This document shows, one piece after another, positions 1 through 38,806 of a stretch of DNA of 61,486 nucleotides. Numbering within the stretch: position 1 is the stretch's first letter; each line of letters starts with the position of its first letter. The DNA comes from Lentimicrobiaceae bacterium (GTDB lineage: Bacteria; Bacteroidota; Bacteroidia; Bacteroidales; WCHB1-69), in contig WQWP01000001.1 of the NCBI GenBank assembly GCA_009787485.1, forward strand, positions 1-61,486, given 5' to 3'. The notes beneath the pieces were generated by a model, which was not told where the DNA came from, ran no database searches, and saw only the letters and a program-made list of their open reading frames with translations. Both the position numbers and the translations under genes were made by a program.

Positions 1-2712
1 GAGATGGGCACAGGAGAGGGAAAAACGCTGGTGGCAACGTTATCTGTTTACTTAAACGCCCTTCCGGGAAAAGGCGTGCACGTGGTTACCGTGAACGATT
101 ATTTGGCAAAACGTGACTCGGAATGGATGGGACTTTTGTACGAATTTCACGGATTAACAGTGGATTGTATTGACAAACATGAGCCCAATTCTGAAGAACG
201 CCGACAAGCCTATTTAGCAGATGTTACTTACGGAACGAACAACGAGTTTGGTTTCGATTATTTGCGTGATAATATGGCGCGAAACGTAGGAGAACTTGTG
301 CAACGTCCTCACAATTACGCTATTGTTGATGAGGTGGACTCCGTGTTGGTGGATGATGCGCGAACGCCGTTAATTATTTCGGGTCCTACGCCGCGTGGCG
401 ACCAGCAAGAGTTCGACATTTACAAGCCAATGATTGAGCGTTTGTATAACGCACAAAAAATATTAGTCAATGAAATATTGACCAAAGCCAAACAGCTGTT
501 AGCACAAAATCCTGATCCTAAGCCGGAAGAAGAAGCTGCCATTTTATTGCTTCGCGCACACCGCGGTTTGCCGAAAAGTAAAGCGATGATTAAATTCCTG
601 AGTGAACAGGGAATGAAGCAGTTGTTGTTGCGCACCGAAGGGTTTTATATGCAGCAACAAAATAGAAACATGCCGATTATTGATCAGGAACTTTACTTTG
701 TGATTGAAGAGAAGCAAAATACAGTAGATATTCAGGAAAAAGGAATTGAGTTGGTTTCCCGCAGCGCCGAAGAAGCCAAATTGTATGTTATTCCAGACGT
801 GGGCGCCGAAATTGCCGAACTCGAAAAACAAAATATTGATCCACAAGAAAAAATAAAAATCAAAAACGAAATCTACCGCAATTTTTCTATTGCTTCCGAG
901 CGCATTCACACCATTCATCAATTACTGAAAGCATATACCATGTTTGAAAAAGATGTGGAGTATGTGATTATGGATAACAAAATTAAGATTGTGGATGAAC
1001 AAACGGGACGTATTATGGAAGGCCGCCGTTATTCGGACGGATTGCACCAAGCTATTGAAGCAAAGGAAAATGTAAAAGTGGAAGCGGCCACGCAAACTTA
1101 CGCCACCATCACTTTGCAAAACTATTTCCGTATGTATAAGAAACTTGCGGGGATGACCGGTACGGCAGAAACCGAAGCCGGTGAGTTTTGGAATATCTAC
1201 AAGTTGGACGTGGTGGTGATTCCTACCAATAGACCGATTGCCCGCTTAGACTCCAACGACTTGGTTTACAAAACCAAACGCGAAAAATACACTGCGGTTG
1301 TAGATGAAATTCTTCGCTTAAATGAAGCAGGACGCCCGGTTTTGGTAGGTACTACCTCTGTGGAAATATCAGAGTTGCTCGCTAAAATTTTATCCGCTAG
1401 AAAAATTAAACATAATGTATTGAACGCCAAACTGCATAAAAAAGAGGCCGATATTGTAGCGGAAGCCGGTCAGGCGGGCACAGTAACCATTTCTACTAAC
1501 ATGGCAGGTCGTGGTACCGACATTAAGTTGGGACTCGGCATTAAGGAAAAAGGCGGACTTGCCATTATCGGCACGGAGCGACACGATTCGCGGCGTGTGG
1601 ACAGGCAGTTGCGTGGGCGCGCCGGACGTCAGGGAGACCCGGGAAGTTCGCAATTCTTTGTTTCGCTGGAAGATGACCTGATGCGTTTGTTCGGCTCCGA
1701 GCGTATCTCAAAAATTATGGACAGGATAGGCTTGCAGGATGGCGAAGTGATTCAACACAGCATGATTTCCAAATCTATTGAGCGCGCCCAGAAGAAAGTG
1801 GAAGAGAACAACTTCGGCATCCGTAAACGTTTGCTGGAGTATGACGACGTGATGAACAAACAGCGCGAAACCATCTACCGCAAAAGAAAAAATGCACTTT
1901 TCGGAGATAAACTGGCGATTGATATTTCCGATATGTTTTACGATGTTTGCGTAAAAGTAATAGAACGAAATTATGAATCGAAAGATTACGAAGGCTTTGA
2001 GCAAGATGTGATTACTACTTTTGGTTGTGAGGTGCCGTTTACACAAGAACAGTTTTTTCAAGAAAGAACCAACAAATTGACGGACGAATTGTATGACAAA
2101 GTGTTTGAAAATTATAAAATCAGACAGCAAATACTTTGTAAACAGGCATTTCCTGTGATAGAGCGTGTTTATTTGGACAACGGCGAACGTTTTGCCAACA
2201 TCGCCATCCCGATTACCGATGGCGTAAAAACATTAAACGTGGTTGCCCCGTTAAAAAAATGCTTTGAAACCGAAGGCCGCGAAATAGGACTTTCTATCGA
2301 AAAAGGAATCACCTTAGCCGTAATTGACAACGCATGGAAAGAGCATTTGCGCGAAATGGACGACTTAAAACAATCGGTACAAAACGCTTCATACGAACAA
2401 AAAGACCCGTTATTAATCTATAAATTAGAGTCTTTCAATCTTTTCGACAGATTATTGGAAAAGATTAACGAAGAGATTGTTTCTTTCCTGAACAAAGGTG
2501 GTTTGCCGGTAGAGCAACACTCACAGGTTCGCGAGGCGCAACTACCACAATCGGAGGCAAGAAAACTGCAAACAGGCAGAAGCGAAATAGGCGGCCGACC
2601 GGTAATTGGCGGCAAGGGAAGTGCGCCGGTACGAGTGGAAAAGAAGGTGGGGAGGAATGAGCCTTGTCCTTGCGGGAGTGGAAAGAAGTATAAGAATTGT
2701 CATGGGCGGTAA
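1..2712 (+). CDS. secA: Preprotein translocase ATPase SecA, 5'-truncated by the window edge
   Basis: The ORF is open from base 1. It has Walker A GTGEGKT at the first codons, a DEVDS box, [24 protein letters not shown], and the C-terminal zinc finger [14 protein letters not shown]. Confidence 0.97.
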
Positions 2713-2811
2713 GATTTTGCACGAGTTTACCCCACATAATACATTAATAATTGCTAATGTTAAAACGGGCAGCAATTTCTCGTTTTGTTAGAATGGAGAA
2801 ATCAATATCTC

Positions 2812-5800
2812 CTAATTTCCAATATTATAAAAGTAATTATTCACTTTCTCCTTATAGTAATATTGCAACGCCGGTGGCACCGTCTTCAACAGTTCCGTCT
2901 GTTGGCTTCTGTTTCTATCGAATTGCCATTCTTTGGGTGGCGAAGGGTTTAGTCTTTCGCGAGCTTCAATAGACTCGCGTTTTTCTTCTTTTTCGCGTTC
3001 TTGCCTAGCGCGTTCGCTCTCTAACATACGCGTTTCAATGCTTTTTTGTCGTGTAATAGTTTGTGCTGATATAGAACGATTTACCAACTCTTTTTCTGTT
3101 TTCTTCATCTCTTCAAGAAGTTGCTCTATGGACTTATCCCCTACCCCATCTTGCCCTTTCAATTCATCGTTATAATCCTGCATCATTTTGCGAATAGCTT
3201 CTTGTTGTGCGGCCATACGTGCAAATTGCTCGCTCATGCCTTGCTGACCGGACTGGCCGGGCATGGGCACTTGTCCCTCCTGCTTGCCTTGCTGCATAGA
3301 ACGTTGCATCGCTTCCATTTGGCGGTTTAATTGTTGTTGCAGTTCGCGCGCCGAATTGGGTTTTCCTTTGCCACCCGGTTTACTGCATGAGGAGTTTTTA
3401 CCTTTACTCCCTTTTTTATTGCACTTTGAATTACATTCTTTCTGCTTTTCTTTCATTTTTTTCAAAGATTCCGCCAACATTAAAGCTAAATTATTCATGG
3501 AAGTCAACGAAAATTGCTCATCTGAAAGCGCCTGTGGAATTTTTCTCTCTACTAAATGTTCTATAGAAGTTTTTGAATACTCTCGAATTTTTGTTACTTC
3601 CTTTGTAATAAACGGTTCTACCATCGGTTGACGTTTCGCCAAATTGGTCAACGAATCATCAATCATGCGCATATAATCTTGAATATTAGATTGTTCGCGA
3701 ATATAATCGGTTAACATCGGCGATTTTGCGCCGCCTGCTTTTACCGCTTGCATTACATCTTCCTGCTTAAAGGAAACACGAATAAGGTTATTCAAAATTT
3801 GACGCAAGGTTTCTATATCTTCGGTAATATCTTCCGCTTCGGCTTCATCTTTCTCTTGTTGCATCTCATCTGCCATATCTTCCATTTGTTGCGAGGCATC
3901 TTGTTGGCTATCTTTGGCTTTCGAGCGATTGTTTTTATTCAACTGTTCCGCCGATTCCTTCATTTTTTGCATAATTTGCTGCTCTTGTTCCGAACGATTC
4001 TTCAATTTGTTCGGCTCTTCCAATTCCTTGTTCAATTTCTGCAAATCTTTCATATCTTTTTGCAAGTCTTGAAACTTTTGATTCAATTGCTCCTGTTTTT
4101 GTTGCAAATCCTCCTTCGGAATTGCTTTTTGTTCGGTTTGTTTCGACAAATCCTTTTGCTCTTGCGCCAAATTACGCGTGTTGTCAATTACCTCCTGAAA
4201 TTTCTTTTCAAATTCCAACAATTTAAACAATGCAAGTTGTTGATCCAAAGACTTATTAATATCTTCCGCACTCATCTGCATTTTTTGCAACGCTTCGCGC
4301 ATCTGATCTTTATTCATTTCCTGCATCATATTCTGCATCTTTTCTATCATTTGTTTCATTTCATCAGAAAGCAAATTATCGAAACGCTTTTGCAGTTCTT
4401 CCTGTTTTTTCATGATCTCAGAAGCCGTATTTTTATACTGTTCCTCTTTCATCAAATTTTTATCTTGACTATCTTTGGCATCTTGAATCTTATCTTGCAG
4501 CTCTTTGTATTGTTCCATCAATGCTTCCATTTTTTGCCGGTCTTGCCAGGAAGGCTCATTTGTTTGCAGCAATTGCTGATTCAATTTTTCTAACTCTTTC
4601 ACCAAATCTGCGGCTTCTTTTGCCAAATCATCCATCGAACTTTTGGTTTGCTCGTTGCCTTGAGCAATCTCTTTGTTAATCTCTTCCATCGTTTTTAAAC
4701 GGAAAGTTACCGCTTGTGTTTTAGCCGCTTTATGCCCGTTAACTCCATCATTATCTTTCACTTCAAAGAAATATTCCATAGAATACCCGGGATGCAAATT
4801 CAATGTACCGGCAGCAAAGTCGAAATAATAATCCTGAACCGTCGCATTTTTATCAAATTGAATATCAATAGTTTGATTTTGTTCCAACAAGTTTTTATTT
4901 TCGTCAAAAACAGAATACACGAACTTCAAACTTGAAAAACCGTAATCATCTCTAATGTTTCCTTTAAAATACACACGATCGGAAAATAAAGAATCGGCTT
5001 GACTTTGCACACTGATTTCAGGGTACAAATCTTTAATTACTTGAATATTATACGACAAGGTATCCGGACTCACGAAATGTTGGTTTTTGGAAATTGTAGC
5101 ATAGTGAAAACTTTCCCGAGCGGTGTGTGAAGTTGTAAATACTTCTTTTTCAGGAGTTAATATCTCTTCTTTATCTCGTAAAAAAAAGTCAATTTGATTG
5201 GTATTTTTGGTATAAAACTTCCAGGTAATGCGTGTGCCTTCCGGTACAGTGGCATCTCCGTTATTTTCAATAACTTCTCTGTTTTTATTCAGATAAGCAG
5301 GAAAACTTAATTCCATTACATAACTTACAATTACCGGTTTGGGGAGTACGTTTATCGTGTAAGGTTGCGTAGTAACCTCTTCTGTTTGCAATTGAAACGT
5401 CATGTCTCTCTGCATATTAGAAAAAGTATAAGCAAATTCCGTATTCGACTGTTTGGTACATCTGTAGTTCCGTTTATCATACACAATAAAAAGCTCATTG
5501 GGCGCTTCATCGCCTATTATTTTAATATATACAGTAAAATTATCATTTTGTAGCGCTTTTAGGCTCTTATTTTGCACTTCAATTTTATAAGGCGCCGGTT
5601 TTTCAAAATGTTGCTGATATTGCACAATTCGTTGTGTGGACTCCGTAAAAATTTCACTTTTGGTAGAAAAAAGCACAAAAAACAGCAGTACCGGAATCAT
5701 TGCCCATTTTATAAAGCGGGTACTCTTTTTAAACGGCACCGCTTTTACAAACGCAAAAGGTTTCAGTGTTTCAATTTTGGTGTCAATAGCTGCATTAAGC

Positions 5801-22453: not shown

Positions 22454-25357
22454 ATGAAAAAAACATTTCTCCTCCTTTTCGTAGCCTTCTTCGCTACTTT
22501 TTCCGTGCTTCATGCACAAAAACAGTACAAATATGAAACGGTTCCCAACGATCCGTTAAATGCTCGTATCTATAAATTAGACAACGACTTAACTGTTTAT
22601 CTAACCCAATACAAAGAAGCGCCGCGCATTCAAACTTACATCGCGGTGAAAGTGGGAAGCAAAAACGACCCCGCCGAAACCACCGGATTGGCGCACTATT
22701 TTGAACACATGATGTTTAAAGGCTCGCCAGATTTTGGCACCATAGATTGGGAAAGAGAGCAAGTGATGATCGCCCAAATTGAAGAATTATTCGAACAATA
22801 CCGGCTTTTGTCGGATGAAGCCGAGCGAGCCGCACTCTACAGAATTATTGACAGTATTTCGTTTGAAGCCAGCAAATTGACAATTCCCAATGAGTACGAT
22901 AAACTGATGAAATTTATTGGCTCGCAAGGTACCAATGCGGGAACGGCAAATGATTATACCGTTTATATGGAAAATATTCCTGCCAATCAATTGGAAAATT
23001 GGGCAATCATTCAGGCAAACCGCTTCGATCATCCGGTGTTGCGCCTGTTTCATACGGAGTTAGAGACAGTTTATGAAGAAAAAAACATGTCGCTTACTAA
23101 CGATAACCGCAAAGGGAGTGAAGCTATTCTTGCCGGATTGTTTCCCAATCATCCTTACGGACAGCAAACTACGCTGGGAGAAGCCGAACACTTGAAAAAT
23201 CCTTCCATGAAAAATATTCGTGAGTTTTACGAAAAATACTATGTGACTAATAATATGGCAATTGCCATGTCGGGAGATTTTGAGTTTGATGATGCTATCG
23301 CTATCATTGACAGGCATTTCAGCAAGTTAAGACGAGGCAACGTGCCGGAATTGATTTATACCGGAGAAACGCCTATTACCGAGCCTGTAGTGAAAGAAGT
23401 GGTGGGTTTGGAAGCTGAATTTCTCAATATGGCGTTTCGCGTGGATTTACCTGCAAACGATCCTAATATCTATACTTTGAATATGTTAGTTCGCATATTG
23501 TATAATGGAAAATCGGGATTGATTGATTTGAATTTGAATCAGAAACAATTGGTAATGAGCGCCGGAGCGTTCCCCTACGTGTTAACCGATAACTCCGCAT
23601 TATTTTTAACCGGAAAACCAAAAGAAGGGCAAACATTAGAAGAAGTTCGCGATTTATTATTGAAACAAATTGATTTATTGAAAAAAGGAGAATTTGATGA
23701 TGATTTATTAACCGCCGTAATTAACAATATGCGTTTAACTGAAATGCGCCAGTTGGAAAGCAATGCCTCGCGCGCAAGAATGTTTACAAGCGCCTTTTGG
23801 AATAATATTCCCTGGGAAGTTGCCTCTCAATCCATCGCCAATTATTCCAAAATCACAAAAAAAGATATTGTTAATTTTGCCAATAAGCACTTCCACAATA
23901 ACTATGTAATTGTGTTTAAGCGACAAGGCACGCCTGAGGAAGTAACTAAGGTGAACAAGCCTGCCATTACGCCCATTCATATTAATAGAGATGAAGAGTC
24001 AAACTTTATGAAGAAAATAAAAGAGGCTAAAACAGAACCCTTAGTAGCTGTTTTTATTGATTTTCAAAAAGATATGACAATCATTCCCAATAAAAACTTC
24101 AACATTTATTATATTAAAAATGTAGAAAATGCTACATTTAATTTGCAGTTTCGTTATAAAACAGGCGAGTTGAATGATTTACGTTTGCCTTTTGCCACCG
24201 ACTATATTGATTATTTAGGAACTTCAACGATGAGCGCCGACAAAATTCAGGAGGAGTTTTATAAATTGGCATGTACCATGAATTTGTCGTGCAGCGACGA
24301 ATATACAACGCTCACTATTACCGGTTTAAGCGACAATTTTGCGAAAGCGCTACAACTTACCTCATCGGTGATGAAAGATGCGCAACCTAATGCCGAAGCG
24401 TTGCAAAATCTGATTTCCGATGCGTTAAAAGCGAGGAGAGATGCGAAAAGCAATCAAAATGCCGTGCAAAACGCACTTCGCAGCTATGGCGAGTTTGGGC
24501 CTGACTTGGCGCAATATATCCTTTCCGAAGAGCAACTTCAAAAGCTTACGCCCAACGAATTAATTAGCATCATAAAAGATTTATTGAACATAAAACCGGA
24601 AGTTTATTTTTATGGCAACCTCTCTACTGATGAATTTAATAAACTTTTATTGAAAAATTACCAAATACCGAAAAAATTCACCGAACCGGCGCCAGCTCAA
24701 GTATTTAACCGCCTTCCAGTAACAGAAGATAAAGTTTATTTTGTACATTATGATGCCAAACAAGCCAGATTGTTTACTTATTCCGACGGTACACCATTTA
24801 ATGTGCAATATTTACCCAATATTAATATGTATAACCAATATTTTGGGGGAAGTATGAATGCCATTGTATTTCAGGAAATGCGCGAAAAACGCGGCTTGGC
24901 TTATACTGCGCGTTCGGCTTATATTTCTGCCAATGAGCTAAATAAGATAAATTACAATTTCTCTTTCATTGCCACTCAAAACGACAAAGTAACGGATGCT
25001 TTTGAGGCTTTTAATGAGCTGTTTAATGATATGCCGCAATCGGAAGCTGCTTTTACATTGGCAAAAGAGGGCGCTTTACAAGCTATTGAAACCAATAGAA
25101 TTCAGAAAACCGCTATTTTCAACGCGTGGCGCAACGCACAAAGAATGGGCATTGACTACGACATTAACAAAGTGCTATATGAATCCTACAAAACCTTTAC
25201 ATTGGATGATGTCGTAAAGTTTAATCATAACCATGTGAAAGACAGAAAGAAAGTATATATGATTGCCGCCAAAGAAGGAGATATGAATTTTGAAGAGCTG
25301 CAGAAAAAATTTGGTCCGGTACAAAAATTAACATTAGAAAATATCTTTGGATATTAA
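22454..25357 (+). CDS. M16 (pitrilysin/insulinase) family zinc metallopeptidase, secreted
   Basis: Signal peptide, and an inverted zinc motif HYFEHMMFKG (HxxEH). The 967-aa length fits a two-module M16 protein. Confidence 0.88.
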   Translation: MKKTFLLLFVAFFATFSVLHAQKQYKYETVPNDPLNARIYKLDNDLTVYLTQYKEAPRIQTYIAVKVGSKNDPAETTGLAHYFEHMMFKGSPDFGTIDWEREQVMIAQIEELFEQYRLLSDEAERAALYRIIDSISFEASKLTIPNEYDKLMKFIGSQGTNAGTANDYTVYMENIPANQLENWAIIQANRFDHPVLRLFHTELETVYEEKNMSLTNDNRKGSEAILAGLFPNHPYGQQTTLGEAEHLKNPSMKNIREFYEKYYVTNNMAIAMSGDFEFDDAIAIIDRHFSKLRRGNVPELIYTGETPITEPVVKEVVGLEAEFLNMAFRVDLPANDPNIYTLNMLVRILYNGKSGLIDLNLNQKQLVMSAGAFPYVLTDNSALFLTGKPKEGQTLEEVRDLLLKQIDLLKKGEFDDDLLTAVINNMRLTEMRQLESNASRARMFTSAFWNNIPWEVASQSIANYSKITKKDIVNFANKHFHNNYVIVFKRQGTPEEVTKVNKPAITPIHINRDEESNFMKKIKEAKTEPLVAVFIDFQKDMTIIPNKNFNIYYIKNVENATFNLQFRYKTGELNDLRLPFATDYIDYLGTSTMSADKIQEEFYKLACTMNLSCSDEYTTLTITGLSDNFAKALQLTSSVMKDAQPNAEALQNLISDALKARRDAKSNQNAVQNALRSYGEFGPDLAQYILSEEQLQKLTPNELISIIKDLLNIKPEVYFYGNLSTDEFNKLLLKNYQIPKKFTEPAPAQVFNRLPVTEDKVYFVHYDAKQARLFTYSDGTPFNVQYLPNINMYNQYFGGSMNAIVFQEMREKRGLAYTARSAYISANELNKINYNFSFIATQNDKVTDAFEAFNELFNDMPQSEAAFTLAKEGALQAIETNRIQKTAIFNAWRNAQRMGIDYDINKVLYESYKTFTLDDVVKFNHNHVKDRKKVYMIAAKEGDMNFEELQKKFGPVQKLTLENIFGY

Positions 25358-26643
25358 TGACTTATCCTGAAATTATAGCGCATATTTTCCAATCCTTCCC
25401 TATGTACCACCGCATTGGAAGTGCGGCATACAAAGAAGGGTTGGAAAATATTGAGCAGCTTGCCGAAATGGCAGGTCATCCCGAAAAGAAAATCAAAACC
25501 ATTCACATTGCCGGAACCAACGGAAAAGGCTCTGTAGCGCACTTATTGGCTTCCTATTTTCAAGAGTTGGGCTGGAAAACGGGCTTGTTTACCTCACCGC
25601 ATCTGATTGATTTTCGCGAACGCATAAAAATCAACGGCAAAGAGATTTCCGAAAAACAAGTAGTAGATTTTTTTGACAAATATCAAGAAAAAATGGCAAA
25701 AATTACGCCTTCTTTTTTCGAAATGACGACAATTTTAGCCTTCGATACATTTGCCAGCGAAAAAACCGATATTGCCATTATTGAAACCGGTTTAGGCGGA
25801 AGATTAGATGCCACCAACATCCTCTCCCCTATCCTATCGGTAATTACCAATATCTCGTTGGAACACACCCAAATGCTGGGCAATACGCTGCCTGAAATTG
25901 CTGTTGAAAAAGCCGGCATTATTAAAAAAAACACTCCCGTAGTGATTGGCGAATATCATCCTGAAACATTTCCGATTTTTGAAGAAATCGCAAAAAACAA
26001 AAACGCCCCACTTTTTTTAGCGGAAGAATATATTGGGGATTTGCAACTTAGCGGCACTTACCAACGAAAAAATATCGGAACGTTTTTAAAATGCGTGCAA
26101 GTTCTTAAAGAAGAAGGAAGAAAGAAGAAGGAAGAAATATCCCCTTCAAATTTTGAAGGGGTGCCCGAAGGGCGGGGTAGTTTATATAAAAACATAATTC
26201 ACACCGCCATCCAAAACCTTTTCAAAAACACCGGTTTTGCAGGCCGCTGGCAAATCATCTCCCAAACCCCGCTTACCATTTGCGACGTGGCGCACAACCC
26301 CGCCGGAATAGCCTTAGTGATGGCGCAATTGCAGGAGTTTCCACACCGCAACTTACACATTATCATGGGTTTTGTTAATGATAAAGATATTGATGAAATT
26401 GTACCTCTGTTGCCCAAAAATGCAACCTATTACGCCTGTCAGGCTCAAATAGAGCGTGCTATGCCTGCGGAAAAACTGTTTCAAAAATTATCTTTGGCTA
26501 ACCTTAATGTTCTTAAAATCTCTAATGTCTTTAATGCCTATAATGAAGCTAAACAAAATGCCGATAAAAACGACCTCATTTTCATCGGCGGAAGTTTTTT
26601 TGTGGTGGGGGAATTTTTGAAAAAAAATGACACAAGTGGGTAA
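25357..26643 (+). CDS. folC: Folylpolyglutamate synthase / dihydrofolate synthase, carrying an in-frame repeat insertion
   Basis: P-loop HIAGTNGKGS, Mur-ligase-like motifs (TSPHL, GLGGRLDATN, DVAHNP). The start overlaps the upstream stop (TAATG). Confidence 0.9.
   Translation: MTYPEIIAHIFQSFPMYHRIGSAAYKEGLENIEQLAEMAGHPEKKIKTIHIAGTNGKGSVAHLLASYFQELGWKTGLFTSPHLIDFRERIKINGKEISEKQVVDFFDKYQEKMAKITPSFFEMTTILAFDTFASEKTDIAIIETGLGGRLDATNILSPILSVITNISLEHTQMLGNTLPEIAVEKAGIIKKNTPVVIGEYHPETFPIFEEIAKNKNAPLFLAEEYIGDLQLSGTYQRKNIGTFLKCVQVLKEEGRKKKEEISPSNFEGVPEGRGSLYKNIIHTAIQNLFKNTGFAGRWQIISQTPLTICDVAHNPAGIALVMAQLQEFPHRNLHIIMGFVNDKDIDEIVPLLPKNATYYACQAQIERAMPAEKLFQKLSLANLNVLKISNVFNAYNEAKQNADKNDLIFIGGSFFVVGEFLKKNDTSG
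26108..26190 (+). repeat. GA-rich tract plus double-hairpin element (copy A), inside the folC reading frame
   Basis: aagaagaaggaagaaagaagaaggaagaaa followed by tatccccttcaaattttgaaggggtgcccgaagggcggggtagtttatataaa. It translates in frame as EEGRKKKEEISPSNFEGVPEGRGSLYKN. Confidence 0.9.
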
Positions 26644-31961: not shown

Positions 31962-32013
31962 AATTAGGAATTAGGAATTAAGAATTAAGAATTAGGAATT
32001 AGGGATTAGGAAA
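31962..32013. repeat. Heptamer tandem array (AATTAGG / AATTAAG, about 7 units)
   Basis: aattaggaattaggaattaagaattaagaattaggaattagggattagg, located between the beta-barrel gene stop and the RND ATG. Confidence 0.9.
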
Positions 32014-32620: not shown

Positions 32621-32649
32621 AATTTTTTATTTTGGTTCATGATTTTGTC

Positions 32650-32704
32650 ATATAAACTACCCCGTCTCGCTTCGCGAGACACCCCTTCAAAATTTGAAGG
32701 GGAT
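32650..32704 (-). repeat. Double-hairpin element, copy B (reverse orientation)
   Basis: catataaactaccccgtctcgcttcgcgagacaccccttcaaaatttgaaggggat. Its reverse complement matches copies A and C. Confidence 0.9.
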
Positions 32705-34830: not shown

Positions 34831-34835
34831 ACTTA

Positions 34836-35018
34836 AGGGAGAAAGGAGAAAGGAGAAGGGAGAAACGAGAAGGAAGAAAAGAGAAGGGAGAAGGGAGAAG
34901 GGAGAAACGAGAAGGAAGAAAAGAGAAGGGAGAAGGGAGAAGGGAGAAACGAGAAGGAAGAAAAGAGAAGGGAGAAGGAAGACGGAAGAAAAGAGAAGGG
35001 AGAAGGAAGACGGAAGAA
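34836..35018. repeat. Purine-rich (GA) tandem array, 42-bp period, about 3.5 units plus shorter sub-repeats
   Basis: gggagaaacgag recurs at 34858, 34900 and 34942. The plus strand is almost entirely G/A. It begins just after the pfkB-family stop and runs directly into hairpin copy C. Confidence 0.9.
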
Positions 35019-35077
35019 TATCCCCTTCAAATTTTGAAGGGGTGTCTCGCAAAGCGAGACGGGGTAGTTTATATAAA
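35019..35077 (+). repeat. Double-hairpin element, copy C
   Basis: atatccccttcaaattttgaaggggtgtctcgcaaagcgagacggggtagtttatataaa. It abuts the stop codon (35080..35082) of the DUF559 gene. Confidence 0.9.
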
Positions 35078-35079
35078 TA

Positions 35080-35499
35080 TCACTTCCCAAACCTCCCCAC
35101 TATAAACCCCTCCAAATCCAACAACACACTCCCCATAAAAAACCGCACACTCTCATCAGCCACCCTGTAAACAACCAACCCCAACGATTCCAAATACGCA
35201 CTCCGTTTCTCATCATATTCTTCCTGATATTTATGAATACCCCCATCAATTTCAATGACCAGCCCTAAACTCTCTACATAAAAATCAACAATATAATTCC
35301 CAATAACTCTTTGTCTATCAAAATCAATTCCATAGAACTTCTTTTTATTGACGTGCATCCAAAACATAACTTCTGAAAAAGTGGAGTTGCTCCTTAATTT
35401 TCGCGCTCGGTATTTTAGAGATTCGTTATATGGTAAGGAGTGGATGTAGCGGGTAGGGATTTGGAGGTCTTTGATTTTGATGTGTTTGGTGGTTTTCAT
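35080..35499 (-). CDS. DUF559 (Vsr-like, restriction-endonuclease-fold) endonuclease domain protein
   Basis: 139 aa with ARKLRSNSTFSEVMFW...FDRQRVIGNYIVDFYVESLGLVIEIDGGIH.., the typical DUF559 core pattern. Confidence 0.8.
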   Translation of the reverse strand: MKTTKHIKIKDLQIPTRYIHSLPYNESLKYRARKLRSNSTFSEVMFWMHVNKKKFYGIDFDRQRVIGNYIVDFYVESLGLVIEIDGGIHKYQEEYDEKRSAYLESLGLVVYRVADESVRFFMGSVLLDLEGFIVGRFGK

Positions 35500-35546
35500 G
35501 AGTTGATTTTTTTAAAAATTCTACTTTCTTTTTAGTTTTTAATTTT

Positions 35547-35596
35547 CATATAAACTACCCCGCCCTGCGGGCACCCCTTCAAAATTTGAAGGGGAT
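35547..35596 (-). repeat. Double-hairpin element, copy D (reverse orientation)
   Basis: catataaactaccccgccctgcgggcaccccttcaaaatttgaaggggat, 48 nt upstream of the DUF559 ATG. Confidence 0.9.
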
Positions 35597-35604
35597 GTTT
35601 GGGT

Positions 35605-35628
35605 TGTCCTATACCGAGATATAGGACA
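35605..35628. repeat. Perfect 9-bp-stem hairpin next to copy D
   Basis: tgtcctata-ccgaga-tataggaca. Confidence 0.7.
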
Positions 35629-35815
35629 GAAATTTAGTTGGTTACAGGCTTTGTTGATGTAAATAAAGGGATCTGATTTTTCTGCGTAAATTTCGCGGCG
35701 AAGATATATAATGGAAAGGCGTTTGTCAAGAGGGGATGTTATTTTTTACTAAGTCTTTTTACAACACTATCATTTTTTTTGTTAATTAGCACCCAAATTT
35801 AAAACAGCAATTTCT

Positions 35816-37294: not shown

Positions 37295-38806
37295 ATGTTT
37301 TTCAAAAAAATATCGTTATATTCATTATTTATGAATTTTAACCTAATGAATACCCAACCTCACCATCCAAAATTCTCAATTCTCAATTCTCAATTCTCAA
37401 TTCTCATTCTCCTTTTCTCCCTTCTCCTTGCTCCTTTTACCTCTGTTTACGCCCAAAAAAAACAAAAAAAAGAAAAATCCACTAAACAAACCGAGCTTGT
37501 AATCAACGAGCGCAAGCAATCTATTGTTTTTGCCGATGGGCTTCGCGAGTTTTATTCGCAAAATTATTCTGCAGCAAAAAAATCGTTTCAGGAAGTATTG
37601 AAACAAAATCCTAAAAATCATGCGGCTCATTATCTGCTGCATAAAATAGCGGTGGAGCAACAAGATTACCTGTTGGCTTCCCATTATTTAAAGGAAGCGA
37701 TAAAATTGGATAAAAAAAATGAATGGTATCAGATTGATTTAGCGGGAGTTCACGAAAAATTGGGCGATTATGTAAGCGCTGCAAAAATTTGGGAAGAAAT
37801 ATGTAAAGTGAAATATAATAATGAATATTATTTAATATCGTTGGCAAACAGCTATTTACATTTAGGAAGATTGCACGATGTCATCAAAGTATATGATCGA
37901 ATAGAGAATCTCTTGGGAAAAAATGACGGTCTCACCGAAACCAAAAAAAATATATGGCTCTATTTAAACGATGTAAAAAACGCCGTGCGGGAATATGAAA
38001 AATTGATGGCGCTTTATCCTCATGAAATTGGATATTACATTATTGCCGGCGAAATTTACTTGTCGAACAACATGCCGGACAAAGCGTTTCCTTTCTTTCA
38101 GCAAGCCATGCAGATAGATGCAGAAGATCCTGATTTGAACTTGGCATTGGCAAACTATTACGAGCGCGTTAAAAAACCGGAGGAAAGTTTTGAGGCATTA
38201 TTAAAGGCTATTTCGAGCAAGGAGTTAGAGATTGAAGAAAAAATTCCTACACTGAAAACCTATTTAGCCAACGCTTTTCGTTTGCAAGTTCCCGACATAT
38301 TGGAAAAAACTGAAAAATTAGCCCAAGCGGTTACCATAGCGCATCCTTTCGATTTGGAAGGTTGGGCATCTTTAGCCAAACTCAGCTCGCTAAAAAAACA
38401 ATATCAGGAAGCTAAGTTGCTCTACGAAAAATGTATAGCGTTAGATGAAGCACAATTTTCCATTTGGGAAGATTATTTTTATGTGTTGGCAAAATTGGAA
38501 GATTATCAAACCATTATCGCCAATGAGAAATTAGTAGAAGAATATTTTCCTACCAATGCCACCATTCAATACAGTTTGGCGCTGGCTTTATACAAAGAAA
38601 AACAGTTCGAGAGCGCTTTAAAGGCTGCCAAACGCGCATTAGCATTCACTTTTGAAAATAGTTTCGTAGCAGATTTGAATCTATTACTTGGCGACATCGC
38701 GATTGAATTGGAGCAAAAAGAGGAAGCGGTAAAATATTGGAAAACAGCGCAACGCCGCGGGATTAACACCCCTGAGCTGCAAAACAAAATAGAAACCAAT
38801 CAATAA
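37295..38806 (+). CDS. Secreted TPR-repeat protein
   Basis: The ATG lies 2 nt after the rSAM stop. There is a hydrophobic N-terminus ending VYAQ and multiple 34-aa TPR-like units (A..Y..A...F..AL..NP...A.Y.L). Confidence 0.8.
   Translation: MFFKKISLYSLFMNFNLMNTQPHHPKFSILNSQFSILILLFSLLLAPFTSVYAQKKQKKEKSTKQTELVINERKQSIVFADGLREFYSQNYSAAKKSFQEVLKQNPKNHAAHYLLHKIAVEQQDYLLASHYLKEAIKLDKKNEWYQIDLAGVHEKLGDYVSAAKIWEEICKVKYNNEYYLISLANSYLHLGRLHDVIKVYDRIENLLGKNDGLTETKKNIWLYLNDVKNAVREYEKLMALYPHEIGYYIIAGEIYLSNNMPDKAFPFFQQAMQIDAEDPDLNLALANYYERVKKPEESFEALLKAISSKELEIEEKIPTLKTYLANAFRLQVPDILEKTEKLAQAVTIAHPFDLEGWASLAKLSSLKKQYQEAKLLYEKCIALDEAQFSIWEDYFYVLAKLEDYQTIIANEKLVEEYFPTNATIQYSLALALYKEKQFESALKAAKRALAFTFENSFVADLNLLLGDIAIELEQKEEAVKYWKTAQRRGINTPELQNKIETNQ
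37370..37437. repeat. Heptamer array (attctca, about 5 units) fused to a CT-rich tract, inside the 5' end of the TPR CDS
   Basis: aattctcaattctcaattctcaattctcattctccttttctcccttctccttgctcctttt. It encodes KFSILNSQFSILILLFSLLLAPF. Confidence 0.85.

Follow-up and report, generated by a model that had tools for sequence, protein, structure and literature searches.

In a contig of a Lentimicrobiaceae bacterium (WQWP01000001.1, positions 1 to 61,486; this whole stretch of 61,486 nt is called the window hereafter), a gene for a DUF559 nuclease was found enclosed by two inverted copies of a structured repeat of about 55 nt. We read the locus as one copy of a small selfish nuclease-plus-repeat module, with a probability of about 0.6. 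Gene and arms travel together, the arms belong to a dispersed repeat, the occupied sites differ, a presence/absence polymorphism was observed, and cassettes decay by internal deletion. The association of DUF559 genes with inverted structured arms is real and lineage-specific, which we hold to be practically certain. It was reproducible across loci and phyla and is apparently undescribed; the mechanism is one that we infer. The first-pass annotation of the window knew of no described link between DUF559 and a hairpin repeat family, and no prior description was found in the open-access literature searched either: no publication was met with that links DUF559, YcjD or BoxC to one another, or DUF559 to repeats. 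DUF559 is among the most widespread uncharacterised nuclease domains, and the lineage-specific link to structured repeats gives both domain and repeats a testable function.

The cassette and its nuclease

Four copies of the element were present in the window, two solo copies (A and B) and two flanking the DUF559 open reading frame (ORF; C and D). Their alignment follows the order AT-hp1-TG-hp2-CGGGGTAGTTTATAT[A/G]A, in which the first hairpin (hp1) and the tail are constant. Hp1 is a 21-nt palindrome, CCCCTTCAAA[T/A]TTTGAAGGGG, located at 26141-26161, 32682-32702, 35022-35042 and 35574-35594; counted by strand, eight matches were obtained in the window versus 0.02 expected from shuffles. The tail pattern GGGGTAGTTTATAT[AG]A adjoins every hp1 site (four matches, 0.5 expected), and CGGGGTAGTTTATAT starts 9-15 nt past hp1 in all four copies. 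The invariant blocks common to them are ATCCCCTTCAAATTTTGAAGGGGTG and CGGGGTAGTTTATAT. The second hairpin (hp2) is CCCGAAGGG, TCTCGCGAAGCGAGA, TCTCGCAAAGCGAGA or CCCGCAGGG, differing in sequence and self-complementary each time. Rfam 15 gave no match to the window at gathering score, only one sub-threshold chance match (E = 0.08).

The nuclease ORF of 139 amino acids occupies 35080..35499 on the minus strand. Arm C (35019..35077, plus strand), the right arm relative to the gene, consists of hp1 (35022-35042), TG (35043-35044), hp2 (35045-35059) and the tail CGGGGTAGTTTATAT (35060-35074). Arm D (35546..35596, minus strand) is the left arm in gene orientation, with the tail at 35548-35562, hp2 at 35563-35571 and hp1 at 35574-35594. 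The two arms pair as inverted copies over 28 nt at 96 % and 21 nt at 90 % complementarity. Together with the match of the ORF to PF04480 (E = 1e-27), this bears out the arrangement first annotated, a single DUF559 ORF between inverted double-hairpin copies; the distances given there, 2 nt between arm C and the stop codon and 48 nt between the tail of arm D and the ATG, were correct as well. The sequence from the left-arm tail to the ATG is an AT-rich 5' leader (35500..35545, minus strand), which measures 45-120 nt in homologous cassettes. Single-strand folding of the arms C and D was far above that of shuffled sequences, with DNA z-scores of -5.4 and -5.95 and RNA z-scores between -2.6 and -7.

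Two features were added to the earlier account. Outside arm D lies a further hairpin, hp0 (GTCCTATACCGAGATATAGGAC; 35606..35627, minus strand), and an equivalent hairpin of another sequence is present in cassettes elsewhere; hp0 thus appears to be conserved across cassettes in structure, not in sequence. Directly 5' of arm C, a purine-rich tandem array of the GGAGAAG type (34838..35018, plus strand) extends over 180 nt with periods of 7, 14 and 42 nt (Tandem Repeats Finder: period 42, 4.0 copies, 94 % matches). The anatomy of the module, which measures about 640 bp, is hp0 - hp1 - hp2 - CGGGGTAGTTTATAT - short leader - DUF559 gene - inverted tail - hp2' - hp1' - (hp0'). On the strand of the gene, arm C reads as a hairpin followed by a T-rich run and has an intrinsic-terminator-like score, so that the right arm is likely the terminator of the gene.

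The protein is predicted to be a Vsr-like PD-(D/E)XK nuclease. In Pfam it matched only DUF559 and no transposase domain, and its sequence match in the PDB was 3HRL (E = 1.7e-14). With the AlphaFold model (pLDDT 91), Foldseek retrieved 3HRL (E = 8e-7) and the catalytic domain of the homing endonuclease I-Bth0305I (3R3P_B; E = 2e-4, probability 1.00; TM-score 0.77, normalised to the target). The results from Pfam, the PDB and the fold comparison all agree with the earlier statement that the enzyme is not a tyrosine transposase. Judged by the predicted fold, I-Bth0305I would be its nearest characterised structural relative; this enzyme is homodimeric and has a pseudopalindromic core site (PMC3239194). 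Four alignment columns, D72, E83, D85 and H89, were invariant from E. coli YcjD to the Bacteroidota and are regarded as putative catalytic residues. Searches in NCBIfam, PHROGs and PADLOC gave nothing informative for the window protein beyond DUF559; PADLOC reported no defence-system component, only weak partial matches (E 6e-4 or worse). An exact-protein look-up of the window DUF559 gave no match, and its 99 % identical homologue P0001 represents the same locus.

Recurrence, empty site and decay of the cassette

A search at E 1e-10 or better revealed 2136 DUF559 homologues. The clade of the window protein comprises about 36 homologues of 65-99 % identity from termite-gut metagenomes, and the next proteins drop to 58 % or below. 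In seven of seven independent contexts of these 65-99 % identical homologues the gene was flanked by inverted arms, one 45-120 nt ahead of the ATG and the other 27-38 nt past the stop codon, mostly accompanied by an outer hp0. The seven cassettes were surrounded by seven different sets of neighbouring genes. Their coding DNA was only about 70 % identical, their hp1 and tail were identical, and in the contexts examined DUF559 was the only gene found between arms. These results support the proposal of the first-pass annotation that the locus is a nuclease-plus-repeat cassette analogous to repetitive extragenic palindromic (REP) sequences and their REP-associated tyrosine transposases (RAYT). DUF559 genes lacking flanking copies, the counter-example named there, were not observed among the seven contexts, two decayed cassettes, four more distant contexts and the homologue P0058.

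The decayed cassettes retain both arms and a remnant of the gene: codons 63-139 in locus L024, at a position orthologous to the intact cassette of L074, and the last few codons only in L004. In L074 (5900-6500) the intact cassette lies directly after cas2 in a cas9-cas1-cas2 locus, and in L024 (4330-4740) the order is cas1-cas2, decayed cassette and, downstream, a CRISPR array. Parts of the element were also seen to be locally amplified. In L072 (6430-6640), hp2-hp1 units are repeated downstream of the cassette, one of them with an insertion in the hp1 loop; in L181 (1376-1500), the unit of hp2 and tail is tandemly triplicated upstream of the DUF559 gene; in L077 (5700-6660), a local amplification has produced additional arms.

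With the repeat occurring roughly once in 15 kb, accidental flanking could by our own estimate affect a few genes in each genome, and a high-copy repeat might have landed on either side of a short gene. We consider the probability of this explanation negligible: the same gene family was flanked in at least 12 independent loci, with inverted orientation, fixed distances and several arm families.

A metagenome scan with the neighbouring PfkB kinase provided about 30 orthologous loci, and the DUF559 cassette was absent from all of them. In L095, from a sister lineage whose PfkB is 94 % identical, the downstream lipoprotein gene is located 55 nt past the PfkB stop codon, without repeats, cassette or purine array. 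The segment of the window that is absent from this spacer, 34831..35770, has a length of about 940 nt and is composed of the purine array, the cassette and 138 nt (35633-35770) between hp0 and the conserved leader of the lipoprotein gene; 36 nt of the latter portion (35711-35746) match L062 7559-7594 at 94 %. An absence of insertion polymorphism, which the first-pass annotation had named as an argument against a mobile cassette, is not upheld in view of the empty site in L095. That the module is or was mobile is in our view highly probable.

Arms beside more distant DUF559 genes

Cognate but diverged arms in the same architecture were present in four more distant Bacteroidota contexts (51-55 % identity). 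In the Flavobacterium-type homologues (51-55 % identity), which occur in three other contexts, the arms read CCCCTCC-N3-GGAGGGG, TG, hp2 and CGGGGTGGT; the gene stands in a conserved Aldedh-DUF559-SnoaL context with the flanks TTTCCCCTCCTTTGGAGGGG-TG-CCTGAAAGG-CGGGGTGGT and their inverse. Two further Bacteroidota homologues in different contexts had arms of the same design, and the predicted N- and C-terminal ORF extensions of P0058 are translated arms of the same kind. A third arm family, an inverted repeat of about 140 nt, accompanies a paralogue at 51 % identity from the same metagenome-assembled genome (MAG; L025 300-1200), with an unchanged layout of hairpin CCTTTTCCAC..GTGGAAAAGG, TG, long hairpin and a stem-strand repeat CGGAAAAGG. 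About 1.5 kb upstream of a Flavobacterium DUF559 cassette, a stand-alone GIY-YIG nuclease ORF of 97 amino acids was observed (L090 1172-1465).

Six DUF559 genes were sampled from a plasmid collection, one each from Sphingomonas, Pseudanabaena, Deinococcus, Synechocystis, Azospirillum and Neisseria. Inverted C-rich/G-rich hairpins bracket the genes of the first three. The Synechocystis gene has an upstream hairpin and, in its ORF translation, an arm-like C-terminal extension, and the repeat finder reported no inverted pair for it; in Azospirillum and Neisseria C-rich/G-rich hairpins are present upstream only. Sequences matching the Deinococcus arm at 85-91 % were present in Azospirillum, with 7-14 per replicon, as well as in enterobacterial records, and the Pseudanabaena arm occurs eight times on its own plasmid. 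In E. coli, the sole DUF559 gene, ycjD, ends within a BoxC-like hairpin (L094, K-12 NC_000913.3 1351185-1351420). An inverted repeat partner is situated 154 nt downstream, with a duplicated fragment of the ycjD 3' end in between, and E. coli genomes carry the adjoining repeat at 15 places each (median). BoxC resembles the present element as an imperfect C-rich/G-rich hairpin with an additional copy of the C-rich strand, one pair of which abuts ycjD. It differs in belonging to another sequence family and in that the repeats are only 3' of ycjD, together with the duplicated gene fragment.

The DUF559 arms have in common a hairpin plus an additional copy of one strand of its stem, and hp2 lies between the two GGGGT motifs in the termite clade. 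We tentatively suggest, as a possibility below even odds, that DUF559 proteins are the cognate enzymes of, and co-evolve with, a class of C-rich/G-rich hairpin repeats found across the bacteria. This class might include the present element, the CCCCTCC..GGAGGGG arms of Flavobacterium, the CCCTCTCCC..GGGAGAGGG repeats of Deinococcus, Alphaproteobacteria and cyanobacteria, and the E. coli BoxC next to ycjD. If true, this would be a second REP/RAYT-like system, mechanistically different and based on a restriction-fold nuclease, and it would account for in-frame palindromic insertions in essential genes. We know of no mobilising enzyme for BoxC-type repeats or for in-frame palindromic elements similar to those of Rickettsia.

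Dispersed copies and the proposed mechanism

Solo copy A (26138..26190, plus strand) lies in frame within the FolC ORF (25357-26643) and is not intergenic; solo copy B (32648..32704, minus strand) occupies, in sense orientation, an intergenic spacer of an RND efflux operon whose two adjoining genes are co-directional. The element is present at both sites where the first-pass annotation had placed it, but copy B begins at 32648 rather than 32650. A scan for hp1 in a collection with one genome per species, which does not include the genome of the window itself, identified 70 stretches. The termite-gut Bacteroidota MAG WQTS01 contributed about 45 hp1 sites in 40 stretches, the Lentimicrobiaceae MAG WRNX01 nine sites and WRGQ01 two. 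Single full copies were found in one Chitinophagales MAG, one Bacteroidales MAG and Francisella sp. SYW-9, and a MAG labelled Thermus/Deinococcus group had a diverged copy without the GGGGTAG tail; the remaining matches were plain terminator hairpins. L035 and L048 represent orthologous segments of the window, about 80 % identical. Viral contigs contained no copy of hp1 with the following TG, thus there is no evidence of a phage origin. The Francisella site (L069 ~5160-5290) comprises two back-to-back copies with tails outward. One hp1 is identical to that of the termite-gut element, the other is different (CCTCTTCGAGTGTCGAAGGG), and no DUF559 gene was found in the 8 kb covered; horizontal transfer across phyla could explain these copies.

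Hp1 and hp2 differ in their variability. All nine pairs of hp1 were invariant in 27 distinct copies. For hp2, 33 distinct sequences were observed among 85 copies, with stems capped nearly always by GAA, GCA, GTA or AAA, or by GCAA or GTAA loops; within the 15-nt class of hp2, two-sided changes occurred in four of six pairs, and none of 500 shuffles reached the observed covariation score. In our reading, hp1 and the tail are probably under sequence constraint, as expected of a site bound by a protein, and hp2 and the outer hp0 probably under structural constraint alone. Very stable single-stranded DNA mini-hairpins are characterised by loops of the type C-GNA-G. Two other readings were considered: if the tail is taken for a Bacteroidetes -7 promoter box (TAnnTTTG), the spacing fits loosely only, and a mirror-repeat or triplex reading of GAAGGGG..GGGGTAG was left as speculation.

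About 30 % of the full copies (18 of 62) reside within long ORFs, nearly all in one orientation and frame, coding for KSPSNFEGV(S/D)(R/G)EA(R/G)RGSLY. Copy A in FolC encodes ...EEISPSNFEGVPEGRGSLYKN...; the ORF reads through purine tract and element (window 26107-26190) with the added residues RKKKEEISPSNFEGVPEGRGSLYKN, which corresponds to a loop insertion of about 25 amino acids relative to the T. maritima FolC (1O5Z). The FolC orthologue in L035 (82 % identical) has the same insertion at the same site. A MurC (L034 2618-4171), otherwise intact (E = 1.6e-66), contains two in-frame copies in opposite orientations, the reverse-oriented one encoding YKPPRPAAPDTPSKFEGD. AroA in L012 is ambiguous and was not counted among the clean in-frame cases, since the element seems to stand in place of about 20 residues instead of merely adding to the protein.

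Of 32 intergenic copies, 16 are located at most 60 nt upstream of a same-strand ATG, typically 8-34 nt, and 16 just past a same-strand stop codon; none is near a divergent start. The reversed element is a hairpin with a T-run and hence terminator-like, so the co-orientation of solo copies with transcription is attributed to selection. The sense-oriented element is likely transcription-neutral, which would account for the persistence of solo copies in operons and in frame within genes. Purine-rich tracts of the GGAGAAG type precede many copies on the 5' side (window 34838-35018 and 26107-26137; loci in L005-L070). In the comparison of L048 with the window at ~12527, the purine tract is native coding sequence (an RKRRKK tail) that is present without the element. 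At L095, in contrast, the tract is missing together with the cassette, so it could reflect a target preference in some cases and a part of the mobile unit in others. Neither of two candidate empty sites for solo copies was accepted: for the L048 copy the synteny breaks at the element, and for copy B the orthologous spacers (L096, L101, L116) are too diverged to align.

The abundance of solo copies, which far outnumber the cassettes, would also fit a scenario in which another enzyme spreads the element and DUF559, as a free-standing gene of a homing-type nuclease, uses it as a landing pad or, caught as cargo between two copies, is moved when copies recombine. Within a cassette, hp2 is often not the same in both arms, one arm in the window has a flank of the solo-copy type, and L076 and L077 have additional arm copies with duplicated flanks; the hp2 differences and the solo-type flank suggest an exchange of arms with solo copies. 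The fold of DUF559 is moreover similar to that of homing endonucleases. A classical homing gene, however, splits its target into two direct halves, whereas the DUF559 gene sits between complete inverted copies. Nothing but DUF559 was found between arms, and the arm families co-vary with DUF559 clades in at least three Bacteroidota lineages, a pattern not expected from passive trapping. The element has no linked candidate transposase. One RAYT-like Y1_Tnp gene was seen (L076 2617-3078; region 2050-3750), with arrays of GTAG-type REPs (CAGTAGCCTnAGGCTACTG) and flanked by CAGTAGCC..GGCTACTG REPs that bear no relation to the DUF559 arms located at a distance of 3 kb; this RAYT was rejected as the mobilising enzyme, since its REPs differ. 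We regard the spread by another enzyme as unlikely.

Co-orientation with transcription and the terminator-like arm C would also be expected if the arms were expression or insulation modules of a Vsr-like housekeeping repair nuclease, the left one as promoter or leader and the right one as terminator, with ordinary REP-like hairpins as dispersed copies. In the same direction point the syntenic position of the gene in Flavobacterium and the VsrA protein of Caulobacter, which carries a DUF559 domain, is genetically implicated in cytosine-methylation mismatch repair and resembles, in its genetic behaviour, a Vsr-type repair nuclease with linkage to a cytosine methyltransferase (PMC12907096). A repair role of DUF559 is kept as a rival because of this genetic tie. 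The reading of the arms as expression modules of such a nuclease we consider quite improbable. Neighbourhoods of the seven cassettes contained no cytosine-5 methyltransferase, the linkage expected of Vsr repair; the sole methyltransferase nearby was of the D12 class (Dam-type), about 2 kb off in L078. Expression modules leave unexplained why full inverted arms have an invariant 21-nt palindrome and a conserved tail, why the gene moves with its arms, is present or absent and decays, and why the arm sequence tracks the nuclease clade.

For the selfish module we propose the following mechanism. DUF559 would recognise the hp1 palindrome together with the GGGGT(G/A) motifs beside it, in duplex form or extruded as a hairpin, and would nick or cut at the hp1/GGGGT motifs. 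Host recombination and repair would then duplicate the gene or the element at other copies of the repeat or at new sites; hp1 and hp2 being palindromic, each of the two inverted arms finds homology in a solo copy. The relation of enzyme and repeat would be that of RAYT to REP/REPIN, but with a nuclease of the restriction fold in place of the HUH tyrosine transposase. From the association, the co-variation and the analogy we judge an action of DUF559 on the repeat to be fairly probable; the specific homing or repair-copying route is rather doubtful and offered as a suggestion. The candidate substrate is defined to the nucleotide, and E. coli with ycjD and BoxC as well as Flavobacterium are tractable model organisms. 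If true, a non-HUH, non-DDE nuclease would join the enzymes that shape bacterial repeat landscapes.

Several points weigh against the selfish-module reading, among them the repair function assigned to VsrA. The Flavobacterium gene, syntenic between species and without solo copies in the ~6 kb seen, looks resident rather than mobile. Binding and cleavage of the element by DUF559 are deduced, and to our knowledge PD-(D/E)XK nucleases alone are incapable of strand transfer. At the junctions between window and L095 no target-site duplication was found, the additional ~940 nt exceed the size of the cassette, and the difference is a presence/absence polymorphism that, without an outgroup, reads as insertion and as deletion alike. 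WQTS01, the MAG richest in solo copies, had a decayed cassette only among its recovered stretches; as MAGs are incomplete, this is a caveat and not a refutation, and the existence of element-rich genomes without DUF559, a further objection raised in the first-pass annotation, can be answered in part.

Compared with known systems, the module resembles REP/RAYT in organisation: a small gene lies between inverted short structured repeats, tens of which are scattered elsewhere, each enzyme lineage has its own repeat sequence, and the gene is single-copy and syntenic in some lineages. The variable GNA-type loops of the element suggest single-stranded DNA hairpins, as in REP/RAYT. The enzyme is a Vsr-like PD-(D/E)XK nuclease and not a HUH/Y1 transposase (PF01797), and because the enzyme class differs we place the module outside REP/RAYT. 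Furthermore, the present repeat is a unit of two or three hairpins with many copies in frame within genes, and its conserved GTAG (GTGG in Flavobacterium) lies 3' of the hairpins, in CGGGGTAG, whereas the GT[AG]G of REPs lies 5'.

Vsr-like homing endonucleases such as I-Bth0305I (PMC3239194, PMC2677866) share the fold, the small selfish gene, the presence/absence pattern and, with hp1, a candidate palindromic target. The DUF559 motif is D...ExD...H rather than EDxHD; the gene is not part of an intron, intein or fractured gene, its putative target is a dispersed repeat family, and it is flanked by complete inverted repeats instead of target halves. Rickettsia palindromic elements (RPEs) are likewise short palindromic repeats in frame in housekeeping genes with a conserved peptide (PMC10969869), here KSPSNFEGV..RGSLY in FolC and MurC. 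They belong to another phylum, have no sequence relation to the present element and are longer (~100-150 versus 42-55 nt). A protein-coding partner is linked to the present element, whereas we know of no such linked partner of RPEs. Miniature inverted-repeat transposable elements and insertion sequences also have terminal inverted repeats around one ORF and non-coding derivatives in high copy number; here, a transposase of a known class and a target-site duplication are absent, and the solo copies are single arms rather than arm-arm miniatures.

Other short tandem arrays were noticed in the window, AATTAGG repeated seven times in an intergenic spacer of the efflux operon (31962-32012) and AATTCTC repeated six times near the 5' end of a TPR gene (37371-37411).

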